Source: Candidatus Bathyarchaeota archaeon (lineage in GTDB: Archaea; Thermoproteota; Bathyarchaeia; TCS64). From it: a stretch of 11,886 nucleotides of DNA. The stretch is from contig JBDRQD010000019.1 of the NCBI GenBank assembly GCA_043826455.1, forward strand, positions 1 through 11,886, read 5' to 3'. Positions 11 to 11,190 of the stretch are shown here, in pieces (positions within the stretch are counted from its first letter, which is position 1; the number at the start of each line of letters is the position of its first letter). Both the position numbers and the translations under genes were made by a program. The notes beneath the pieces were generated by a model. It was not told where the DNA came from, made no database searches, and saw only the letters and a program-made list of their open reading frames with translations.

Positions 11-2566
11 ATGCAGGTTCTCCTCGTCGGCGGTGACCCCGGGGTTCTCGGCTCCGTTAAGAGGTTCCTTGAGGAAGAGAACCCCAAAATGCGGGTGGTC
101 TCCGTTCAGCGGCCGGAGGAGGCGCTGAGGCTTCTATCCTCGGAGGCGTTCGACTGCGTAGTCTCCGACTACACGATGCCGGGGATGAACGGAGTAGAGC
201 TGGCCAGAAGGATCAGGGAGACGAGCACCGTCCCGTTCATCATCTACAAGGATCGTGAGACCGTGGAGGTGGCTGAGGCCGCCTTCGAGGCCGGCGTGGA
301 CAGCTTCGAGCGGAGGATAGCCGACCCGAGGCACCTCCTGGTGCTCGCGAAACGGGTGAGGCTGGTGGTGGGGAGGCGCCGGTCAGAGGATCTGTACCGG
401 GGCGTGGTGGAGCGAGTCAGGGACCCACTCTGGATACTCGTAGGGACCACCATCGTACACGCCAACGAGGCGATGGCGGAGCTCCTCGGAGTCGACGGCC
501 CCGATGAGGTTATGGGTCACGAATCCACGGAGTGGGTCGTAGAGGAGGACCGGGAGAGGGTTCGGGAGACGGCCCTCGGCAGGCAGAGGGGAGAAGCCAT
601 GCCACAGCTATACGAGTTCACAATCCAAAGGCGGGACGGCCAGCGTAGACGGGTTGAGGCGTCAGCCTCCCTCATAAGCTACATGGGGAGCACGGCCAGC
701 CTCAGCTTCCTCCGCGACATAACCGAACGCAAGAAGTCTGAAGAGGAGTTGATCCGTCTAGCTGATGCCGTAAGGATGACCACAGATAGCATCATGATCT
801 CTGGCATTGATGGAAAGATCATAGATGTTAATGAAGCCACCCTGAAGATGTATGGCGCAGAGGACAGGGGAGAACTGATTGGAAAAAGCTCCTTCGACCT
901 CATCGCCCTCGAAGACAGAGAAAAAGCGTTAGCGGGTATGAGCGAGGTTCTGGAAAAGGGGTACGTGGAGAGTCGAGAGTATCGTATCTTACTGAAGGAT
1001 GGCCGTGAAACATCTGTGGAGATGAGCGTCGCCATCTTGAAGGGTCTGGATGGTAACCTAATGGGTTTTGTAGGCGTTTCAAGAGACATCACCGACCGCA
1101 AGCGGTTGGAGGAGGAGATGGGTAAGCAGAGGCTGACGTTGGAAGACCTCTACGAGAACGCGCCCGTAATGTACCTGACCCTCGACACGGAGGGCGTAAT
1201 AATCAAAGCCAACCAGACGATGTGTGGCGCCCTCGGCTACGCTAAGGAAAAGCTTGTAGGCAAAGAAATGTGCGCTCTCCTGCCGGAGGGAGACACCCAG
1301 ATATTCAAAGACAGCTTCCCAAGGTTACTCGAGATTGGAGGCATACGCGGTGCATTGAGGAGACTCGTCGGGAAGGATGGTAGAGTCATCGAGACATTGA
1401 TGGATACGTCGGTCGAGTACGGGGAGGATGGGAGTCCTCTCTACACCCGGGCTGTCTTCAGGGACATGACCACCCAGAGAGAGGTGGAGAGGAAACTACA
1501 GGAGTCGGAGGAGAAGATTCTCAACTTTTTCGATTTTACTAGAGAAGGGATAATAATAACTAATTACGCTGGAATAATAGAATCAGCAAACTCTGCGTCA
1601 ACCAGGATTCTAGGTTACAGCAAAGAAGAGCTTATAGGGAGTCCCTTAAATGGGCTCGGTTTTGACCCGCATCAAAGCCAAATGATGTTGAACAAGTTAA
1701 TCAAGAATGACTATATAGAATCTTATGAGACGGTTTATAAACGAAAAGGCGGGTCTTTTATCGACGTATTAACTAGCTCTTTTCTTCAAAGGGATCAAAA
1801 TGGGAGCATAGTACAGATTGGAACCATCTTCACAGACATCACTGAACGTAAACGAGCAGAGAGGATGATGAGGACGAAGCTGATGAAGTTCAGCATAGAA
1901 CCAGGGCATATTTACGTTGTAAAGGAGAAGGCCCCAGCCTTGGCTCTTGAGGCCTTCAAAGACCTCCTCAACATAGGTTATCAGGGAGTTGTTATCTCGA
2001 GAACACCTGAAAACATTTTTAGAAAAATGGTTAAGAATGACTTTAACTTCTATTGGCTCGCTGAAAAGGGTGAACGAGTTACACCTCCCAGTTATCAGAA
2101 AATTAAGGAACTTGTGGAGACCTATCCAAGGAACGCCGCTTTTTTGATAGACGGAATCGAGTACCTGGTTTTAAGGAGGGGATTTAAGGCACTCGTATTA
2201 TTTATTCAATGGCTTAGAGACCATGTAATCTTCACAGGGGATACAGCTATTCTGGTACTTGATCCTGTCCAATACACAGAACGAGAACTTCATCTACTAG
2301 GAAAAGATGCTGAGGAAGTTAATGTCCGGCATCCAAGTGTTTCTGCGGAGATGCTTGAGATCTTAAGCTTTGTCTATGCCCAAAATAGGGTGGGAGTTAA
2401 TCCAAACTACTCTGCTGTCGGACAGGATAGAAACCTGAGTAAGCCTACCCTGAAAAAAAGGATAAATCATCTTATCAACTCTGGCTATTTGACTGAAACT
2501 CCAGTTGGGAATAACAAACTTCTTCATATAACGGAGACTGGGCGAAGCATGCTTTTTCAGCAATAG
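11..2566 (+). CDS. Multidomain signalling regulator: degenerate receiver (REC) + 4 PAS/PAC + DUF835 (inactive KaiC-like) + C-terminal winged HTH
   Basis: 851-aa ORF. REC fold at the N-terminus (FDCVVSDYTMPGMNGVEL). Four PAS repeats end in RDITERK, RDITDRK, RDMTTQR and TDITERK. DUF835 signature IEPGHIYVV...GVVISRTPE...FYWL...FLIDGIEYL...GF lies at ~1895-2320. The C-terminal LSKPTLKKRINHLINSGYL...LLHITETGR looks like a MarR-type wHTH. Confidence 0.85.
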   Translation: MQVLLVGGDPGVLGSVKRFLEEENPKMRVVSVQRPEEALRLLSSEAFDCVVSDYTMPGMNGVELARRIRETSTVPFIIYKDRETVEVAEAAFEAGVDSFERRIADPRHLLVLAKRVRLVVGRRRSEDLYRGVVERVRDPLWILVGTTIVHANEAMAELLGVDGPDEVMGHESTEWVVEEDRERVRETALGRQRGEAMPQLYEFTIQRRDGQRRRVEASASLISYMGSTASLSFLRDITERKKSEEELIRLADAVRMTTDSIMISGIDGKIIDVNEATLKMYGAEDRGELIGKSSFDLIALEDREKALAGMSEVLEKGYVESREYRILLKDGRETSVEMSVAILKGLDGNLMGFVGVSRDITDRKRLEEEMGKQRLTLEDLYENAPVMYLTLDTEGVIIKANQTMCGALGYAKEKLVGKEMCALLPEGDTQIFKDSFPRLLEIGGIRGALRRLVGKDGRVIETLMDTSVEYGEDGSPLYTRAVFRDMTTQREVERKLQESEEKILNFFDFTREGIIITNYAGIIESANSASTRILGYSKEELIGSPLNGLGFDPHQSQMMLNKLIKNDYIESYETVYKRKGGSFIDVLTSSFLQRDQNGSIVQIGTIFTDITERKRAERMMRTKLMKFSIEPGHIYVVKEKAPALALEAFKDLLNIGYQGVVISRTPENIFRKMVKNDFNFYWLAEKGERVTPPSYQKIKELVETYPRNAAFLIDGIEYLVLRRGFKALVLFIQWLRDHVIFTGDTAILVLDPVQYTERELHLLGKDAEEVNVRHPSVSAEMLEILSFVYAQNRVGVNPNYSAVGQDRNLSKPTLKKRINHLINSGYLTETPVGNNKLLHITETGRSMLFQQ

Positions 2567-2590: not shown

Positions 2591-2640
2591 TCCCATCTTA
2601 ATGTGTTGGTAAACAGCAACTATTGATCAGGTGTAATGAT

Positions 2641-3036
2641 ATGGAAATAGAGTTGGCTGAGATTAGAACCCCTGTGGTTGAGGTCTGGCAGAATGTGATA
2701 CTGGTCTCCATAGTAGGCACCCTAGACACCAACCGGGCGGGTGTGTTGATGGAGGCGCTTCTGATGAAGATCGTGGACAAAGAGGCGAAGGTCGTCATCC
2801 TGGACCTCGACGGCGTGCCATTAATAGACACGACCGTGGCCAAGCACATAATGGACACGATAGCGGCGGCTAAGCTGATGGGACCCGAGGTCATCGTCTC
2901 GGGGATAAACCCGGAGGTGGCCAAGACGATGGTGAAGCTTAAAATCCGGTTCGAAGCCGAGACCTACAGCGTGCTGAGGAGGGCGATGGAGTCCGCCTTA
3001 AAGCTTCTTGGGTATGAGCTCACCATATTAAAGTAG
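2641..3036 (+). CDS. rsbR: RsbR-type stressosome STAS protein lacking an N-terminal sensor domain
   Basis: TPVVEVWQNVILVSIVGTLDTNRA...ILDLDGVPLIDTTVA...SGINPEVAKTMV matches the RsbR STAS domain. Both phospho-Thr positions are kept (GTLDT and IDT, equivalent to B. subtilis T171/T205). ATG 2641 follows an AGGTG SD-like motif; the ORF track start at 2623 is less likely. Confidence 0.88.
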   Translation: MEIELAEIRTPVVEVWQNVILVSIVGTLDTNRAGVLMEALLMKIVDKEAKVVILDLDGVPLIDTTVAKHIMDTIAAAKLMGPEVIVSGINPEVAKTMVKLKIRFEAETYSVLRRAMESALKLLGYELTILK

Positions 3037-3077
3037 CGCCGGGAGAGGACGCAGCCGTAAGGGAGGGAGATCATGTT

Positions 3078-3449
3078 TTGTCGATGGGCAGGGTAGCGTC
3101 TGCGCTGAGGTTGGGGGACTGCCTTCTGGTGACCCCGCAGGGAGATCTCCACGACTCCGCCGCCGACCTGTTCCTAGAGGAGACCCTCGAGAGCCTGAAC
3201 AAGGCTAGATGCACTAGCCTGATACTGAACATGGGGAACGTCGAAGTCGTGGACAGCTTCATGGGCAGGACCATCGGCGAGTTGATCCAGGCCGCCTCCC
3301 TTCACGGTGTGAAGGTCGTGGTGGTGGGTCTGAGGCCCGAGGTGGCTATAACCATGGTGGAGATGAACATATCCATAGGCCACGTCGACACCGCCCTCAA
3401 CATCGACAATGCTCTAAACATCCTAAACAAGAAGAGGATTCGACCTTGA
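3078..3449 (+). CDS. rsbS: RsbS-type STAS protein (stressosome antagonist)
   Basis: LLVTPQGDLHD...VEVVDSFMGRTI...VVGLRPEVAITMVEM...TALN. The DSF motif carries the RsbS phospho-Ser (S59 equivalent). GGAGGGAGA lies upstream; the start is TTG 3078 or ATG 3084. Confidence 0.92.
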   Translation: MSMGRVASALRLGDCLLVTPQGDLHDSAADLFLEETLESLNKARCTSLILNMGNVEVVDSFMGRTIGELIQAASLHGVKVVVVGLRPEVAITMVEMNISIGHVDTALNIDNALNILNKKRIRP

Positions 3450-3862
3450 TGCCTTGTGAGGATGTTGAGGTGGAGGAGATACGTACGGAATCGGACATCG
3501 TGAGGTGTCGGTCCCTGGCTAGGGCCTTCGCCGGGAGGCTGGGCTTCGGCAAAGTGGATCAGACCCGCATCACCACAGCCGTCTCGGAGATCGCTAGGAA
3601 CACGCTTGTCCACGGCGGTGGGGGCAGTATGACGATCAGGGTAGTCGAGGGAAACGGCCTAGAGGTTCTGTTTGTCGACGCCGGCCCCGGCATCCAGGAC
3701 ATCGACTTAGCGATGAGAGACGGCTACTCGACCGCTGGGAGTCTTGGACTGGGGCTGGGCGGCGCCAGGAGGCTCATTGACGAATTCAGTTTAGAGTCGA
3801 AGGTAGGCGCTGGAACGAGGGTAACTATGAGAAAGTACCCGTCGAAGCAGGCGTGGGGCTGA
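3449..3862 (+). CDS. rsbT: RsbT Ser/Thr switch kinase (GHKL/HATPase_c)
   Basis: ESDIVRCR...LGFGKVDQTRITTAVSEIARN (N box), DAGPGI (G1), DGYSTAGSLGLGLGGARRLIDEF (G2), GTRV. A TGATG overlap with the rsbS stop gives ATG 3449. Confidence 0.95.
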   Translation: MPCEDVEVEEIRTESDIVRCRSLARAFAGRLGFGKVDQTRITTAVSEIARNTLVHGGGGSMTIRVVEGNGLEVLFVDAGPGIQDIDLAMRDGYSTAGSLGLGLGGARRLIDEFSLESKVGAGTRVTMRKYPSKQAWG

Positions 3863-4443
3863 TGCCTGGGTTGAGGGTTGGAGTAGCATCCAAACCGATG
3901 AAAGGCTTCGAGGTGAACGGGGACGCACACCTCCACCTGGAGGCCGAGGGCCGGAGCCTCGTCGCTGTCTTCGACGGCCTCGGCCACGGAGCGGACGCCT
4001 CGGTGGCCTCGGAGAGGGCCCGGAGATACGTGGAGACCCATGCCTTGGACGGCCTTGAGGAATTGTTCCATGGTTGCCACGCCGAGATCGAGGACACCAG
4101 GGGCGTCTGCATGGGAGTGTTCAGGGTCGACAGAGGGTCGGGCAGGATCGAATACTGTGGCGTGGGGAACACCGCTGCATGGATACTCGGGGAGGAGCAT
4201 AGAAGAATGGTCTCCGTATCAGGTATCGTGGGCTACACCATGGAGAGCCTCCTCAGATTTGAGTACCGTTATGATCGGGAGACGGTCTTGATGCTCCACA
4301 CCGACGGCGTCTCTTCCAGGTTCAGCCTCCCTAGCCTAGGCGCGGTGAGGGATGACCCTCAGAGGGCTGCTGAGGAGATCCTGGAGGGGTGGGGGAAGGA
4401 GACCGATGACGCCACAGTGGTGATAGCCGTTGAAAGGAGATAG
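3862..4443 (+). CDS. rsbX: RsbX-like PPM/PP2C (SpoIIE-family) Ser/Thr phosphatase
   Basis: Metal-binding motifs NGD, DGLGHG, HTDGV and DDATVV are present, plus TRG and GVGN. At ~193 aa it is a stand-alone phosphatase. A TGATG overlap with the rsbT stop gives ATG 3862. Confidence 0.9.
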   Translation: MPGLRVGVASKPMKGFEVNGDAHLHLEAEGRSLVAVFDGLGHGADASVASERARRYVETHALDGLEELFHGCHAEIEDTRGVCMGVFRVDRGSGRIEYCGVGNTAAWILGEEHRRMVSVSGIVGYTMESLLRFEYRYDRETVLMLHTDGVSSRFSLPSLGAVRDDPQRAAEEILEGWGKETDDATVVIAVERR

Positions 4444-4447
4444 TGCA

Positions 4448-6394
4448 TTGAAGGACCCGGTGGATAGGCTGGCAGAGCTGCTCCGTGAGTACAGCAGAGA
4501 CGGAAGCGAGGATGTCCTGTACAGGGCGTCCCTGCTGGGGAGGGAGCTTCATGGGTTGATGACGCCTCCCGACAGGGTTTTGGGCTTCTTCCTGGAGGCC
4601 CTGAGGCGGGTCTCTCAGGTGTCTGCTGAGTTTGAGGGTCTGCTCCTCGAGGTGATGATCACCTACAGCTCCAGCTTCCTCGAGGCGGAGGCGGCGCTTA
4701 GGGAGAGTGAGGAGCGTTACCGTAGCCTCGTGGAGAACTCGCCCAACGCTATCTCGGTCATGGTAGAAGGTAGGATCGTTTACGCTAACAAGAGGAGAGC
4801 GGAACTCGCAGGAAAAGACGATCCATCCGAGTTGGTTGGCACAAGCGTCATCTCTCAGATAGTGGAAGGAGACAGGGAGTCTATAGTAGAGAGAGAGGAG
4901 GCAAGAGAAAGAGGGGAGAAGCCTCCATCACCATTCGAGTACAGGATGTTGAGGGCGGATGGCAGCGTCAGAGACATCGTATGCTACAGCTCAGCTATTA
5001 GCTATCAAGGTAAAAACGCTGTGCAGCACGTGCTCCTCGATGTCACCGAGGAGAAGCGGTACGAGGAGAGGCTTGAGACTCTGCACCGGCACGCATTGGG
5101 GCTTGCCCTGATGGAGACCTTTGAGGGGATTGGTGAGGTGACTATGAAGGCGGTTGAGGATGTCCTCGGATACAACATTGGCAGCTTCGGGGTCGTTGAG
5201 GGTGAATTCCTCCGGTATATATACCTAAAGGGAACTGGGAGGGGTGAGACCTTTAAGATGCCTTTAGATGGGCCGGGAGTCACTGTTAGGGCACTCAGGC
5301 TCGGGGAATCTCAGCTAGTCCATGACACCCGCGTGGAGGAGAACTATGTGATTGGCCTCACTGAAGGCGAATACCCGAGTCTATCTGAGCTCGCGGTTCC
5401 CGTTCACCTCGAAGGGAAACCCGTTGCCGTGATAAACGTGGAGAGCACGGAGGTAGGTGCTTTCACGGTGATGGATCAACGGCTCTTGGAGGTCTTCGCA
5501 GAGCACGTGGCTTCAGCGTATGGGAGGCTCCAGCATCATGCGCTACTAATAGAGGCTGAGGAGCGGTACAGGGAGGTGGTGGATAACAGCAACGACGGCA
5601 TCCTCGCCATCAGCCTCGACGGGGTGGTCACCTTCTCGAACCGGAGGATGCTGGAGATGACTGGGTACGGGCCGGGGGAGGTGGTGGGCAGGAGCTTCTC
5701 TGACCTCATCAAGGTGGATGCTAGGCAGAGGATGGTTGAGCTTCTTCAGTCAGCCACTAAGAGGGAGGTGACTGGCCTCTCAGAGTTTGAGTTGACCCGC
5801 GGGGACGGGTCGACGCTGTACGTGGAGGCTTCGGCCGCCGCCATAATGAGGGGTGGGGCCCTTGCGGGGGTTCAGGTGATCTGCAGGGACATCGGGGAGC
5901 GGAAGGCTGGTGAGCGCCGTGTCAGGGTGCTGGCCTACCAGCTGAACGGCTTGAAGCCGGGCGGCTGCTTCATCAGCGACTCCCATGAGCGGTGCTTCAA
6001 GGCGTTCGCCGACCTGACCATGCATGGGGTCCCGGGTCTCTGCTTGGCGAGGGAGGACCCTGAGGCATTGGTGTCCCGGTATGGCATCGGCAGGGAGAGC
6101 ATCGTCCTGGTGTCGACGAGGCCGGTGGCGGGGTTTGAGGTTGTCAGGGACCTGCAGGAGGTGAGCCGGCTCATCGCAGCGTTCCTCGCGAAGAACGGGG
6201 AGCCCGTGGTGGTGCTGGATGGCCTGGAGTACCTGGTCAGCCGGTTCGGGTTCGACCCGGTCTACGGCTTCATCCAGGAGAAGCGGTTCGACTTCCTGGA
6301 TGCCGGCGCCGTCCTCCTGGTACCTGTGGACTCGGCGACCCTCAGCGACCGGGAGAGGGCCCTCATAGCCAGCGAGGTAGCTACCCTCATGTGA
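4448..6394 (+). CDS. RsbU_N-like domain + PAS + GAF + PAS + DUF835 (inactive KaiC-like) signalling protein
   Basis: The N-terminus LAELLREYSRDGSEDVLYRASLLGREL...PPDRV...LLLEVMITYSSSF resembles the RsbU N-terminal domain. It is followed by PAS (YRSLVENSPNAI...DVTEEK), GAF (GVTVRAL...SELAVPV...VINVES...FTVMDQRLLEVFAEH), PAS (...RDIGERK) and DUF835 (GLCLAREDP...VVLDGLEYLVSRFGF). AAGGAG at 4434-4439 favours TTG 4448 over 4430. Confidence 0.85.
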   Translation: MKDPVDRLAELLREYSRDGSEDVLYRASLLGRELHGLMTPPDRVLGFFLEALRRVSQVSAEFEGLLLEVMITYSSSFLEAEAALRESEERYRSLVENSPNAISVMVEGRIVYANKRRAELAGKDDPSELVGTSVISQIVEGDRESIVEREEARERGEKPPSPFEYRMLRADGSVRDIVCYSSAISYQGKNAVQHVLLDVTEEKRYEERLETLHRHALGLALMETFEGIGEVTMKAVEDVLGYNIGSFGVVEGEFLRYIYLKGTGRGETFKMPLDGPGVTVRALRLGESQLVHDTRVEENYVIGLTEGEYPSLSELAVPVHLEGKPVAVINVESTEVGAFTVMDQRLLEVFAEHVASAYGRLQHHALLIEAEERYREVVDNSNDGILAISLDGVVTFSNRRMLEMTGYGPGEVVGRSFSDLIKVDARQRMVELLQSATKREVTGLSEFELTRGDGSTLYVEASAAAIMRGGALAGVQVICRDIGERKAGERRVRVLAYQLNGLKPGGCFISDSHERCFKAFADLTMHGVPGLCLAREDPEALVSRYGIGRESIVLVSTRPVAGFEVVRDLQEVSRLIAAFLAKNGEPVVVLDGLEYLVSRFGFDPVYGFIQEKRFDFLDAGAVLLVPVDSATLSDRERALIASEVATLM

Positions 6395-6406: not shown

Positions 6407-7102
6407 TTATAGGAGCCGGATCTTCTCCAGCCCCTGCTCCCCGTAGGACACCTGGTCGCCGAAGAGGCCTCTGAACCCATGTACCTCTCTGCTCTCATGT
6501 GCCTCAGGGTTTAGGAGGAAGATGGCTGTGAACCGCGGCTCGTCAAGCCTTCTCAGAGTCTCCTGGGCGAACCCGTAGGCCGCCTCGAAGCCTGCTGAGA
6601 GTGCGTGATCGGTGAGATTATCATAGACGAGGGCCAGCGGCTCATCCCTGTGGGCGTCCAGGATTGGGGAGAGGATGGTCTGAGGCGTCACAGGGACTAG
6701 CTCCACGGCCTCGTCCCCCAGCAGGGCCCTGTGGAGGGCGCTGGTGCTGGGCGATAGCACGGCCACCCCTTCCCCGTAGGCCCGGGCCTCCAAGAAGTCT
6801 CTCACACACCTCTCATAGGGCGTAGAGGGGCTGTACTCCATAAGGATCTTTCTGCCCCGGAGCTCCATGTGGCTCAGGCCCAGCGCACCCGAGAACCCGG
6901 TCCTCCGGGAGGCCTCCAGGTGTCTCCTCAGGTACCCAGCCAGCTCGGCGGTGAAGGGCTTGGTGACGTAGCCGTCGGCACCCGCCTCGGCGGCCATCCT
7001 CCTGTCCACGTCCCTCCCCAGGGCTGTGAACATCACCACCGGGATGTGCCTCGTCCTCGGCTGCTCCTTCAGAGCCCTGCACACCTGGAAGCTGCGCGCG
7101 GG
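6407..7102 (-). pseudogene. 5'-truncated response regulator: C-terminal half of REC + inactive KaiC/DUF835-like domain
   Basis: The frame reads PARSFQVCRALKEQPRTRHIPVVMFTALG...GADGYVTKPF, i.e. only the second half of a receiver. The acidic pocket and phospho-Asp are absent and an in-frame TAA lies at 7118-7120 inside tbp. The C-terminal GRKILMEY...LVYDNLTD...GFEAAYGF...TAIFLLNPEAHESREV...LF resembles inactive KaiC-like domains. It could still be translated from GTG 7084. Confidence 0.7.
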
Positions 7103-7103
7103 G

Positions 7104-7667
7104 CTACTCGTAGTAGATTAAGTCGTAGTCCTCAAGTATCAAGTGGAGCTTCTCCACGGCCTCACGGACCATGTCCTCGTGCTTCGCCCCCGTGCACACC
7201 AGCTTACCTGAAGAGAACATGAGCATCACCACCTTGGGCTCACCCATACGGTAGACAAGGCCGGGGAACTGCTCGGGCTCGTACATCACGTTCTCCATGA
7301 TGTCCGCAGCGGTCTCCAGGTCAATCTTGCCGTGGAGGTTGGCTGTGGCCACTATGTTCTGGGTGACTATCTTGGGTTTACCCAGTATGATTATCCCGTT
7401 GTTCTTGAGCTCCCGCACCACCTTATTTACGGCGCTCCGGGCCATCTTCTCAGACTTGGCCCCGGTGCACACCATCTTGCCGGACCCGAAGATGAGGGTG
7501 GTCGTCTTCGGCCTCTTAAGCCTGAATACGAGGCCCGGGAACCGTTTGGGGCGGTACTCAACGTTGCGGAAGACCTTCATGATGGCTAGGAGGTCGATCT
7601 TCTGGTCGAGGGTTGCTGTGGCTACTACGTTTTGTATTACTATTTCAAGGTCTCGTGTTTCAGCCAC
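7104..7667 (-). CDS. tbp: TATA-box-binding protein
   Basis: Two TBP repeats: IQNVVAT...EYRPKRFPGLVFRL...LIFGSGKMVCTGAKSE and TQNIVAT...YEPEQFPGLVYRM...MFSSGKLVCTGAK. GTG start. Confidence 0.98.
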   Translation of the reverse strand: MAETRDLEIVIQNVVATATLDQKIDLLAIMKVFRNVEYRPKRFPGLVFRLKRPKTTTLIFGSGKMVCTGAKSEKMARSAVNKVVRELKNNGIIILGKPKIVTQNIVATANLHGKIDLETAADIMENVMYEPEQFPGLVYRMGEPKVVMLMFSSGKLVCTGAKHEDMVREAVEKLHLILEDYDLIYYE

Positions 7668-9364: not shown

Positions 9365-9640
9365 CTAGTTCTTCGCCAGAGTTATCGCTATGTTGCTGAC
9401 GTTCCTCGGGCTACCGTCCTCGGACTCCAGCTGCTCAGTCCCGATGCTAATGTCCTTCACGACGAGATCCGAGACGAACTGGTTCCTCACAACCTCAGCC
9501 ACGTCCACCGCCTTACTGATGGCACGACCCCTAGCCATGAGGGTCACCTCGCTACTCTCATCCCTCAGGGCCGTCATCGCCGCTAGACAGTAAGCCATAA
9601 CGGGTTTCATGCCGATGTAGACAACGTTACCTTTCTCCAA
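9365..9640 (-). CDS. albA: DNA/RNA-binding chromatin protein Alba (Sac10b family)
   Basis: VYIGMKPVMAY...ARGRAISKAVDVAEVVRNQF...ISIGTE...RNVSNIAI. TTG start with an AGGTGA SD upstream. Confidence 0.96.
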   Translation of the reverse strand: MEKGNVVYIGMKPVMAYCLAAMTALRDESSEVTLMARGRAISKAVDVAEVVRNQFVSDLVVKDISIGTEQLESEDGSPRNVSNIAITLAKN

Positions 9641-10218: not shown

Positions 10219-11190
10219 TCACACCTGGACGTTGAACTCCATGCGCCGGGCCAGCTCCTTGTACCTGTTCCTTATAGTAACCTCGGTGACCTGAGCCTCC
10301 CGGGCTATCTCGCCCTGGACTCGCCTCTCACCGTTGAGCATGCAACTGATGTAGACACACGCCGCCGCCATACCCTGGGGCCCCCTGCCACTGGTGAGCT
10401 TCATCTCGGACGCCTGGTTCAGAATCAGCATGGCCAGCCTCTCCGTCTCCCCCGTCAAGGCCAGCCTGTTCACCAGCCTGCTGATGTAGCCCTGAGGGTC
10501 CACCTGGGGCACAGTGGGCTTCAGCTCCCTGAGCAGGAACCTGTAGTTGCGGGCCGCCTCCTTCTTGGTGATGTTGGCAGTCTCAGCCACGTCCCCCAGG
10601 GTCCTGATGATCCCGCACTGCCTGCACGCCATGTAGATGCTGGCCACGGCCACGCTCTGGATGGTCCGGCCGCGGATGAGCTGCTTCTGGATAGCCCTCC
10701 TATAGATCATGCTCGACGTCTCCATGACGTTCCTGGGCAGGTTCAGCTTGTAGCTTATCTTACTCATCTCGCTGAGAGCGTGAGCCAGGTTACGCTGGTT
10801 GCTGCCCGACACCTTGCTCCGCCTGTGCCACTTCCTGAGCCTGTAGAATTTCGCCTGCTCCTCCGGGCTGAGCCTGCGCACTGACGCGCCTCTGTCCTGC
10901 CAGCCTATGGTGGTGCTCAGCCCCTTGTCGTGGATGATCCACGTCACCGGTGCGCCGACCCTGGGCTTGTTCTCCTGCTGCTCCGGCTCGAAGGCCCTCC
11001 ACTCGGGGCCATGATCGATGAGCGTGGACGAGACCACGTAGCCGCATGCCCGGCACACAAGCTCACCGGCCTCCACGTCCCGGAGGAGGCTGAATCCGCC
11101 GCACTCCCTGCAGAAGGTGGGGGCCATCTCTCCTAGGACCTTCATCTTCTCTGGATACCCTTCCACTTTTGCCCGTAATTGAAGACGCAT
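10219..11190 (-). CDS. tfb: Transcription initiation factor IIB (TFB)
   Basis: Zn ribbon CRECG...CRACG, B-reader IDHGPEWRAF, linker RVGAP...HDKGLSTTI, RLRKW, two cyclin repeats (LIRGR...IYMACR; GRGPQGMAAACVY) and BRE-binding HTH VTEVTIRNRYKEL. The true start may be a downstream Met. Confidence 0.98.
   Translation of the reverse strand: MRLQLRAKVEGYPEKMKVLGEMAPTFCRECGGFSLLRDVEAGELVCRACGYVVSSTLIDHGPEWRAFEPEQQENKPRVGAPVTWIIHDKGLSTTIGWQDRGASVRRLSPEEQAKFYRLRKWHRRSKVSGSNQRNLAHALSEMSKISYKLNLPRNVMETSSMIYRRAIQKQLIRGRTIQSVAVASIYMACRQCGIIRTLGDVAETANITKKEAARNYRFLLRELKPTVPQVDPQGYISRLVNRLALTGETERLAMLILNQASEMKLTSGRGPQGMAAACVYISCMLNGERRVQGEIAREAQVTEVTIRNRYKELARRMEFNVQV

Follow-up and report, generated by a model that had tools for sequence, protein, structure and literature searches.

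An RsbU_N-like domain on a DUF835 protein encoded directly behind an archaeal rsbRSTX cluster, a candidate site for RsbT docking

The output gene behind rsbX in an archaeal stressosome cluster opens with a segment (4448-4690) that is confirmed here as a real, divergent RsbU_N domain, and this domain is likely to be the docking site for RsbT on a protein ending in DUF835. The window, by which we mean the whole 11,886-nucleotide stretch of DNA that was analysed, is an entire contig (C19) of a 2.9-Mb genome that is 97.7% complete and 7.2% contaminated. It encodes TBP, TFB, Alba and one Lrp-type gene, so the host is archaeal, and the named relatives of the window proteins point to a member of the Bathyarchaeia. 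The cluster itself is a minimal rsbRSTX module followed by its output gene (Table 1), with rsbR, rsbS, rsbT, rsbX and the fusion gene lying next to one another; rsbS overlaps rsbT, rsbT overlaps rsbX, and the five lie close together, each intact and in frame. The probable start of the fusion gene is the TTG at 4448, with an AGGAG 7-8 nt upstream and the rsbX stop codon 4 nt upstream.

Table 1. Stressosome cluster, upstream neighbour and domains of the fusion gene, in window coordinates.
Feature	Coordinates	Strand	Remarks
REC-4xPAS-DUF835-wHTH-like gene, upstream neighbour; candidate downstream partner	11..2566	+	wHTH matches below cut-off
rsbR homologue, STAS domain alone, 131 aa, without sensor domain	2641..3036	+	
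rsbS homologue, STAS, VDSF motif intact	3078..3449	+	
rsbT homologue, GHKL switch kinase; R22, R26, D92 kept	3446..3862	+	
rsbX homologue, single-domain PP2C	3853..4443	+	
Fusion gene RsbU_N-PAS-GAF-PAS-DUF835, 648 aa	4448..6394	+	domain junctions bridged by contigs
RsbU_N-like four-helix domain	4448..4690	+	E21, Y25, L67, I71 match RsbU E24, Y28, I74, I78
Helical linker	4691..4735	+	predicted: helix 4 of the model (model residues 65-102, counted from 4430) unbroken into the start of PAS1
PAS domain 1	4712..5056	+	
GAF domain	5120..5518	+	
PAS domain 2	5561..5905	+	
DUF835 (iKaiC), RecA/KaiC-fold without Walker A	5978..6376	+	

An earlier note, made from the letters of this DNA, had read four motifs at the start of the fusion protein as those of Bacillus subtilis RsbU. 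All four are present in the forward-strand frame at 4448-4690, and the identity that they suggested is borne out by profile comparisons. The Pfam check that the note proposed came out divided: PF08673 is the sole family match of the segment (E 0.0017), at 19 bits against a cut-off of 25.5, and it scores 13.3 bits when the whole protein is scanned. A phmmer search of the segment against the RsbU structures gave E values of 0.33-1.3, with RsbU structures making up four of its eight matches. A profile built from 13 non-bathyarchaeal RsbU_N rows, with shuffled and reversed sequences as controls, scored the segment at 37.4 bits, whereas the best of 5,000 shuffles reached 13.1 and the reversed sequence -0.1. 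When the same profile was run over the genome's six-frame ORFs, 20,913 in all, the segment came out first (E 1.8e-7, with the runner-up at 0.32). The rows of this profile had been gathered with a profile that included the window, and 10 of the 11 rows scanned pass the Pfam cut-off unaided. A second profile, of 12 bathyarchaeal-type rows, recovered the four N-terminal RsbU structures with E values between 3e-4 and 2e-3 (next match 0.17), and HHalign gave a probability of 92% to a Neobacillus RsbU. Ten matches were returned by a search of 1.84 billion representatives; four of them (P0008-P0011, several short stretches each) were left out as repeat-like before the Pfam count, and all six homologues that were kept match RsbU_N, two above the cut-off. 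Among the nearest relatives, those that pass the PF08673 cut-off are P0004 (33.9 bits), P0013 (55.7 bits) and a protein of another genome of the same genus, G147 (27.4 bits). A single-sequence search with residues 5-100 among 3,165 candidates of 359-1145 aa found nothing but the protein itself.

The structure model of the domain (pLDDT 85) has four helices, the long last one running into PAS1. The top match in the fold search is the C-terminal domain of KaiA (Z 9.4, rmsd 3.0, 85 residues aligned), and RsbU is matched at Z 5.7-6.0 over 61-63 residues, corresponding to the first three helices; both Z values lie below the tool's helical-bundle level and do not decide the matter. A swap of the fourth helix in the RsbU crystal dimer would account for the low RsbU score over three helices. 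RsbU_N and KaiA-C share one fold (PMC11372060), so that a structural match to KaiA is to be expected. The best match in the ESM Atlas (0.85), from a cluster with RsbU_N on 45% of its members, is a lead only, and the window domain sits on a long branch (0.95) in the RsbU_N tree.

In Bacillus RsbU the interface with RsbT includes E24, Y28, I74 and I78 on the RsbU side and R19, R23 and N24 on the RsbT side, and a salt bridge between RsbU R91 and RsbT D92 is needed for activation (PMC12143880). Alignment to the RsbU chain in the PDB upholds the claim that the Glu/Tyr pair is kept, with E21 and Y25 (counted from 4448; nt 4508 and 4520) falling on E24 and Y28, and L67 and I71 occupy the positions of I74 and I78. 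Across a 28-row alignment the Glu is invariant (28/28) and the Tyr is found in 23 rows, with an aromatic residue in 27. The register of R91 is not kept: in an ungapped extension from Y80/Y73 it falls on L84, with an Arg at 85, and this position varies across the RsbU_N family. On the kinase side, numbered with Neobacillus RsbT as a proxy, the window RsbT has intact kinase motifs in addition to the residues listed in Table 1, and an Ala at the N24 position. The core of the docking site is kept, and the linker contact may not be. The surface residues of RsbT were also considered as a marker of RsbU_N partners and rejected, being about as common in RsbT proteins that lack such a partner: the R19 equivalent occurs in 22 of 22 with one and 28 of 28 without, and R23 in 21 of 22 as against 21 of 28.

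The tie to the stressosome that had been read from gene position holds when the class is surveyed. Among 401 genomes sampled from it, including that of the window, RsbT occurs in five and the RsbU_N domain in two, the window's genome and G147, in both behind rsbX. In G147 the same slot is filled by an RsbU_N domain on a histidine kinase (HisKA), and the remaining three RsbT genomes lack RsbU_N, rsbX being followed there by another RsbT-like gene. In two other bathyarchaeal clusters, which have a second RsbT-like gene in place of RsbU_N, KaiC-family genes lie just upstream of rsbR: a full KaiC together with a short KaiC-like/DUF7504 gene in G187 (L012, 12365-13996, reverse strand) and a short one in G330 (L013, 12054-12629, reverse strand). 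The cassette is present in 2 of the 71 genomes of the family. Metagenomes supplied 20 loci, 16 of them bathyarchaeal-type; in 14 of the 15 with visible upstream DNA (the 16th shows too little) the domain stands directly behind rsbX or a remnant of it, the exception being L034, from which the first helix has been lost. Because of close kinship among many of these loci, they stand for a handful of lineages. When the best 80 RsbT loci from named genomes were inspected, in a scan biased to RsbT proteins like the query, 16 carried the domain, including all seven archaeal ones (one being the G147 locus), on bodies that comprise histidine kinase, GGDEF, HD, PAS-only and true PP2C forms. Of the 401 genomes, 25 have close DUF835 relatives of the fusion protein, and among these 25 RsbU_N is present in the window's own genome alone. 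Since the domain tracks rsbX and not DUF835, RsbU_N follows the stressosome and has been grafted onto a native archaeal protein type. Of 91 pairs, which are not independent of one another, 68 gave a usable dN/dS ratio over the domain, with values of 0.10-0.60 (0.52 for the two pairs that include the window); values below 1 point to purifying selection on it.

Other arrangements were seen in passing. Three loci from Alkanophaga and another Methanophagales genome (L036, L037, L067) have an RsbU_N-histidine kinase directly behind rsbT, and in the tree they make up an archaeal group distinct from that of the bathyarchaeal domains. A bacterial RsbU_N-GAF-GGDEF gene is represented by four assemblies (L029-L032), and no rsb gene was seen upstream of it, the DNA covered extending to as much as 6 kb in L030-L032. 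A donor for the module was sought in the RsbT tree, and none is named because the window joins no well-supported group there; matching sub-clades of RsbT and RsbU_N were not counted because they are expected from gene linkage.

The input side of the cluster is reduced. The stop-to-stop frame of the window RsbR is 144 aa, leaving the protein as a bare STAS domain, and the genome, at its stated completeness, yielded just two STAS genes, no RsbRD_N domain and no sensor-bearing RsbR. The RsbR of G147 is also STAS-only (L011, 11403-11792, reverse strand), and other bathyarchaeal loci have kept the sensor domain. A short RsbR split over two frames was noticed in G330 (L013, 11522-11985, reverse strand). 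No other PP2C or STAS gene was found in the genome, where the sole SpoIIE match is RsbX, so there is no RsbU/RsbV route. To our knowledge, archaea have no sigma factors.

The body of the fusion protein is, as the note had it, not a phosphatase: it consists of PAS-GAF-PAS-DUF835, and a Pfam scan of the 648 aa found no PP2C/SpoIIE domain. DUF835 (PF05763) scores 68.7 bits against a cut-off of 33.1, and its model (pLDDT 93.6) matches Rad51, FlaH, RecA and KaiC CI at E 3e-5 to 5e-4; the Walker A pattern was found in none of 30 aligned DUF835 rows. DUF835 is a common archaeal output domain, listed among the outputs of response regulators in archaea as a KaiC-like domain that has been inactivated (PMC5847659). 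The genome holds three DUF835 genes, two of which flank the stressosome cluster, and ten KaiC-family matches, nine of them over the cut-off.

A second RsbU_N-DUF835 fusion was found in a decayed state. Two metagenome loci, L015 and L016, identical over 1,235 nt, carry an RsbU_N-PAS-DUF835 gene that a stop and frameshifts have disrupted, and it too lies behind what is left of rsbX. The tree gathers the bathyarchaeal-type domains into one group (98/92), in which the window and L015 are not sisters, L015 joining the PAS-only forms; this placement is read with care because the branches are long. Two histories would fit: two separate origins of the DUF835 fusion, or an old fusion that has often been lost. 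When 8,000 candidates of 320-2,000 aa were scored, with P0024 (11% coverage) dropped from the matches, no second intact fusion turned up, and this search is weak evidence. Bathyarchaeal RsbU_N-PAS(1-2) proteins that have no output domain were also observed (L017-L028, L045, L051, L054), some ending right after RsbU_N, and an insert of five residues ahead of the conserved Glu is common to the group. The window fusion is not an assembly artefact, since one contig, from what may be the source run, covers 2600-5674 with no differences, contigs from two other studies, from closely related strains, bridge the RsbU_N-PAS1 junction, and one bridges position 5674. In the RNA run X6, two contigs from a strain 97-98% alike lie over rsbS-rsbT-rsbX and none over the fusion gene; such contigs do not demonstrate transcription.

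The surroundings of the cluster have irregularities of their own. In the upstream REC-4xPAS-DUF835-wHTH-like gene, the last 1 kb has a G+C content of 0.41, down from about 0.55-0.64, which suggests a mosaic. On the reverse strand, the gene at 6407-7084 contains only the second half of a receiver domain, cut at the end of the TBP gene with the phospho-Asp half missing, together with a weak DUF7090 match, and a copy that is 80% alike lies in two frames on contig C29 beside a transposase-like ORF. The genes for TBP, Alba and TFB (7104-7667, 9365-9640 and 10219-11190) have copies 82-92% identical on other contigs of the same genome, reflecting either an expansion of paralogues or a contig from a co-binned relative, given the level of contamination.

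Placing the protein among known systems separates what is familiar from what is new. Like Bacillus subtilis RsbU (PDB 1w53, 2j6y, 2j6z, 2j70), it has a homologous four-helix domain followed by a long helix and is encoded with rsbR, rsbS and rsbT. RsbU, however, joins RsbU_N to PP2C, whereas the protein here has neither the phosphatase domain nor a route through RsbV, RsbW or SigB; the R91 position is out of register, the gene lies behind rsbX and the host is an archaeon. Closer in layout are MtG of Moorella (RsbU_N-GAF-GGDEF) and the proteobacterial RsbU_N histidine kinases, which have the same module order with RsbU_N on a non-phosphatase; G147 and the three Methanophagales loci have the kinase version. 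The window differs from these in its non-enzymatic DUF835 output and its STAS-only RsbR. The rest of the protein resembles archaeal iKaiC proteins such as REC-PAS-PAS-DUF835 (PMC5847659), in which a PAS/GAF stack ends in DUF835; contig C29 encodes a GAF-GAF-PAS-DUF835 paralogue with which it shares 44% identity across 455 aa. Unlike its DUF835 relatives, it has RsbU_N where they often have REC, or else more sensors, and its gene is tied to a stressosome cluster.

In Proteobacteria, RsbU_N-like domains on signalling proteins behind rsbX have been described, as has the occurrence of a minimal stressosome module in some archaea (PMC9237108), and RsbU_N on a histidine kinase and on MtG has led to the proposal of an 'exchangeable toolkit' (PMC12143880). 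The earlier note was therefore right that RsbU_N sits on a non-phosphatase here and overstated the surprise: with kinases and diguanylate cyclases already in print (PMC9237108, PMC12143880), non-phosphatase grafting as such is already known. Full-text searches returned no paper joining RsbU_N or the stressosome to DUF835, KaiC or Bathyarchaeia, and none listing a DUF835 output or an archaeal RsbU_N protein, in the text that these searches cover; the supplementary tables of Heinz 2022, Galperin 2018 or the 2017 mBio paper on the archaeal KaiC hub could list the architecture. As far as the searches run can tell, the new part is a DUF835 output in an archaeon, with one intact example.

We propose, with a probability of roughly 60%, that RsbT freed from the stressosome docks on a dimer of the RsbU_N domain, and that the signal passes through PAS-GAF-PAS to change partner binding by DUF835. 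By analogy with Bacillus RsbU, the domain would dimerise, and two RsbT molecules would bind across the dimer and the helix that follows, stiffening it into a short coiled coil. The change would run through PAS-GAF-PAS, where small-molecule input could be added, to the two DUF835 domains. DUF835 cannot work as an ordinary ATPase, so its output would lie in altered binding of other proteins, most likely a KaiC-family ATPase or the neighbouring REC-PAS-DUF835-wHTH protein. RsbX would reset RsbR and RsbS, which would then recapture RsbT. Several observations count against this scheme: the Pfam score below cut-off, the long branch, the shift of R91, the Ala in RsbT and the failure of its kept residues to mark RsbU_N partners, the sensorless RsbR, the single intact RsbU_N-DUF835 fusion beside many truncated relatives, and the three domains that lie between docking site and output.

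One alternative shares the docking step and differs only afterwards: RsbT docks to phosphorylate the fusion protein, as in Moorella, and phosphorylation in place of linker stiffening sets the output. The out-of-register R91 weakens the linker mechanism, the window RsbT keeps its kinase motifs intact, and in Moorella the RsbT homologue is reported to phosphorylate a diguanylate cyclase downstream of it (PMC4976288), a protein that has an RsbU_N domain (PMC12143880). The phospho-site would be a hypothetical one, however, and we regard this course as unlikely. Equally unlikely, in our estimate, is that the domain acts as an RsbT sink or is the leftover dimerisation module of a decaying cassette, with the DUF835 body a passenger of a recent in-frame fusion that RsbT does not control. 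Relatives that stop at RsbU_N itself or at the first or second PAS domain, the pseudogenised fusion of L015 and L016 behind its rsbX remnant, the sensorless RsbR, the patchiness of the cassette in the family and the adjacent REC gene that lacks its first half would all fit such decay. Yet the five genes are intact, packed and in frame, the Glu/Tyr pair is kept, dN/dS is below 1, the RsbU_N-DUF835 fusion occurs in two non-sister lineages, and contigs from two other studies cover parts of the gene in close strains.

That the domain is KaiA-like, binding the tail of a KaiC-type ATPase or its own DUF835 domain, seems to us quite improbable, for all that the top structural match is the C-terminal domain of KaiA (PDB 1r5q, 5c5e), with the same four-helix fold. 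The RsbU_N family profile (alignment A7) reaches KaiA (PDB 1r5q) by sequence alone at E 0.002, RsbT binds RsbU at a site equivalent to the one that KaiC occupies on KaiA (PMC11372060), and the genome has its ten KaiC-family matches. RsbU is nonetheless far closer by sequence, KaiA being 11% identical, and the Z of 9.4 is below the tool's helical-bundle level; the protein has no pseudo-receiver domain and no kaiB/kaiC cluster beside its gene, and it is rsbX, rather than genes for KaiC or DUF835, that the domain follows. A chance resemblance, a generic helical N-terminus or an assembly artefact would be in keeping with the Pfam score below cut-off, the non-significant single-sequence matches in the PDB and an Atlas lead of 0.85; the shuffle test, the whole-genome rank, the homologues above cut-off and the junction-bridging contigs lead us to reject it as extremely improbable.

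Beyond the proposed docking of RsbT on the RsbU_N dimer, we raise more tentatively, and as something we rather doubt, a wider scheme in which a bacterial stressosome has been wired into an archaeal KaiC-superfamily network in place of the sigma-B cascade. RsbT, through a KaiA-fold domain, would control an inactive KaiC-fold domain in the same chain, whose targets would be KaiC ATPases or the REC-PAS-DUF835-wHTH regulator next door. With RsbR pared down to STAS, sensing would have passed to PAS and GAF domains in the output proteins. The KaiC-family genes near the clusters of G187 and G330 would then be other solutions to the same link.

What can be drawn from the window is bounded by a single intact example, an uncultured host and a general principle that is already in print. 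Within those bounds, an output gene with a recognisable RsbT-docking domain and two mutable residues makes the link directly testable with small soluble proteins. DUF835 gains a defined candidate input, and if RsbT changes DUF835 binding, its partners can be fished out in the presence and absence of RsbT. The idea of RsbU_N as an exchangeable toolkit would thereby be extended from enzymes to a non-enzymatic archaeal output.
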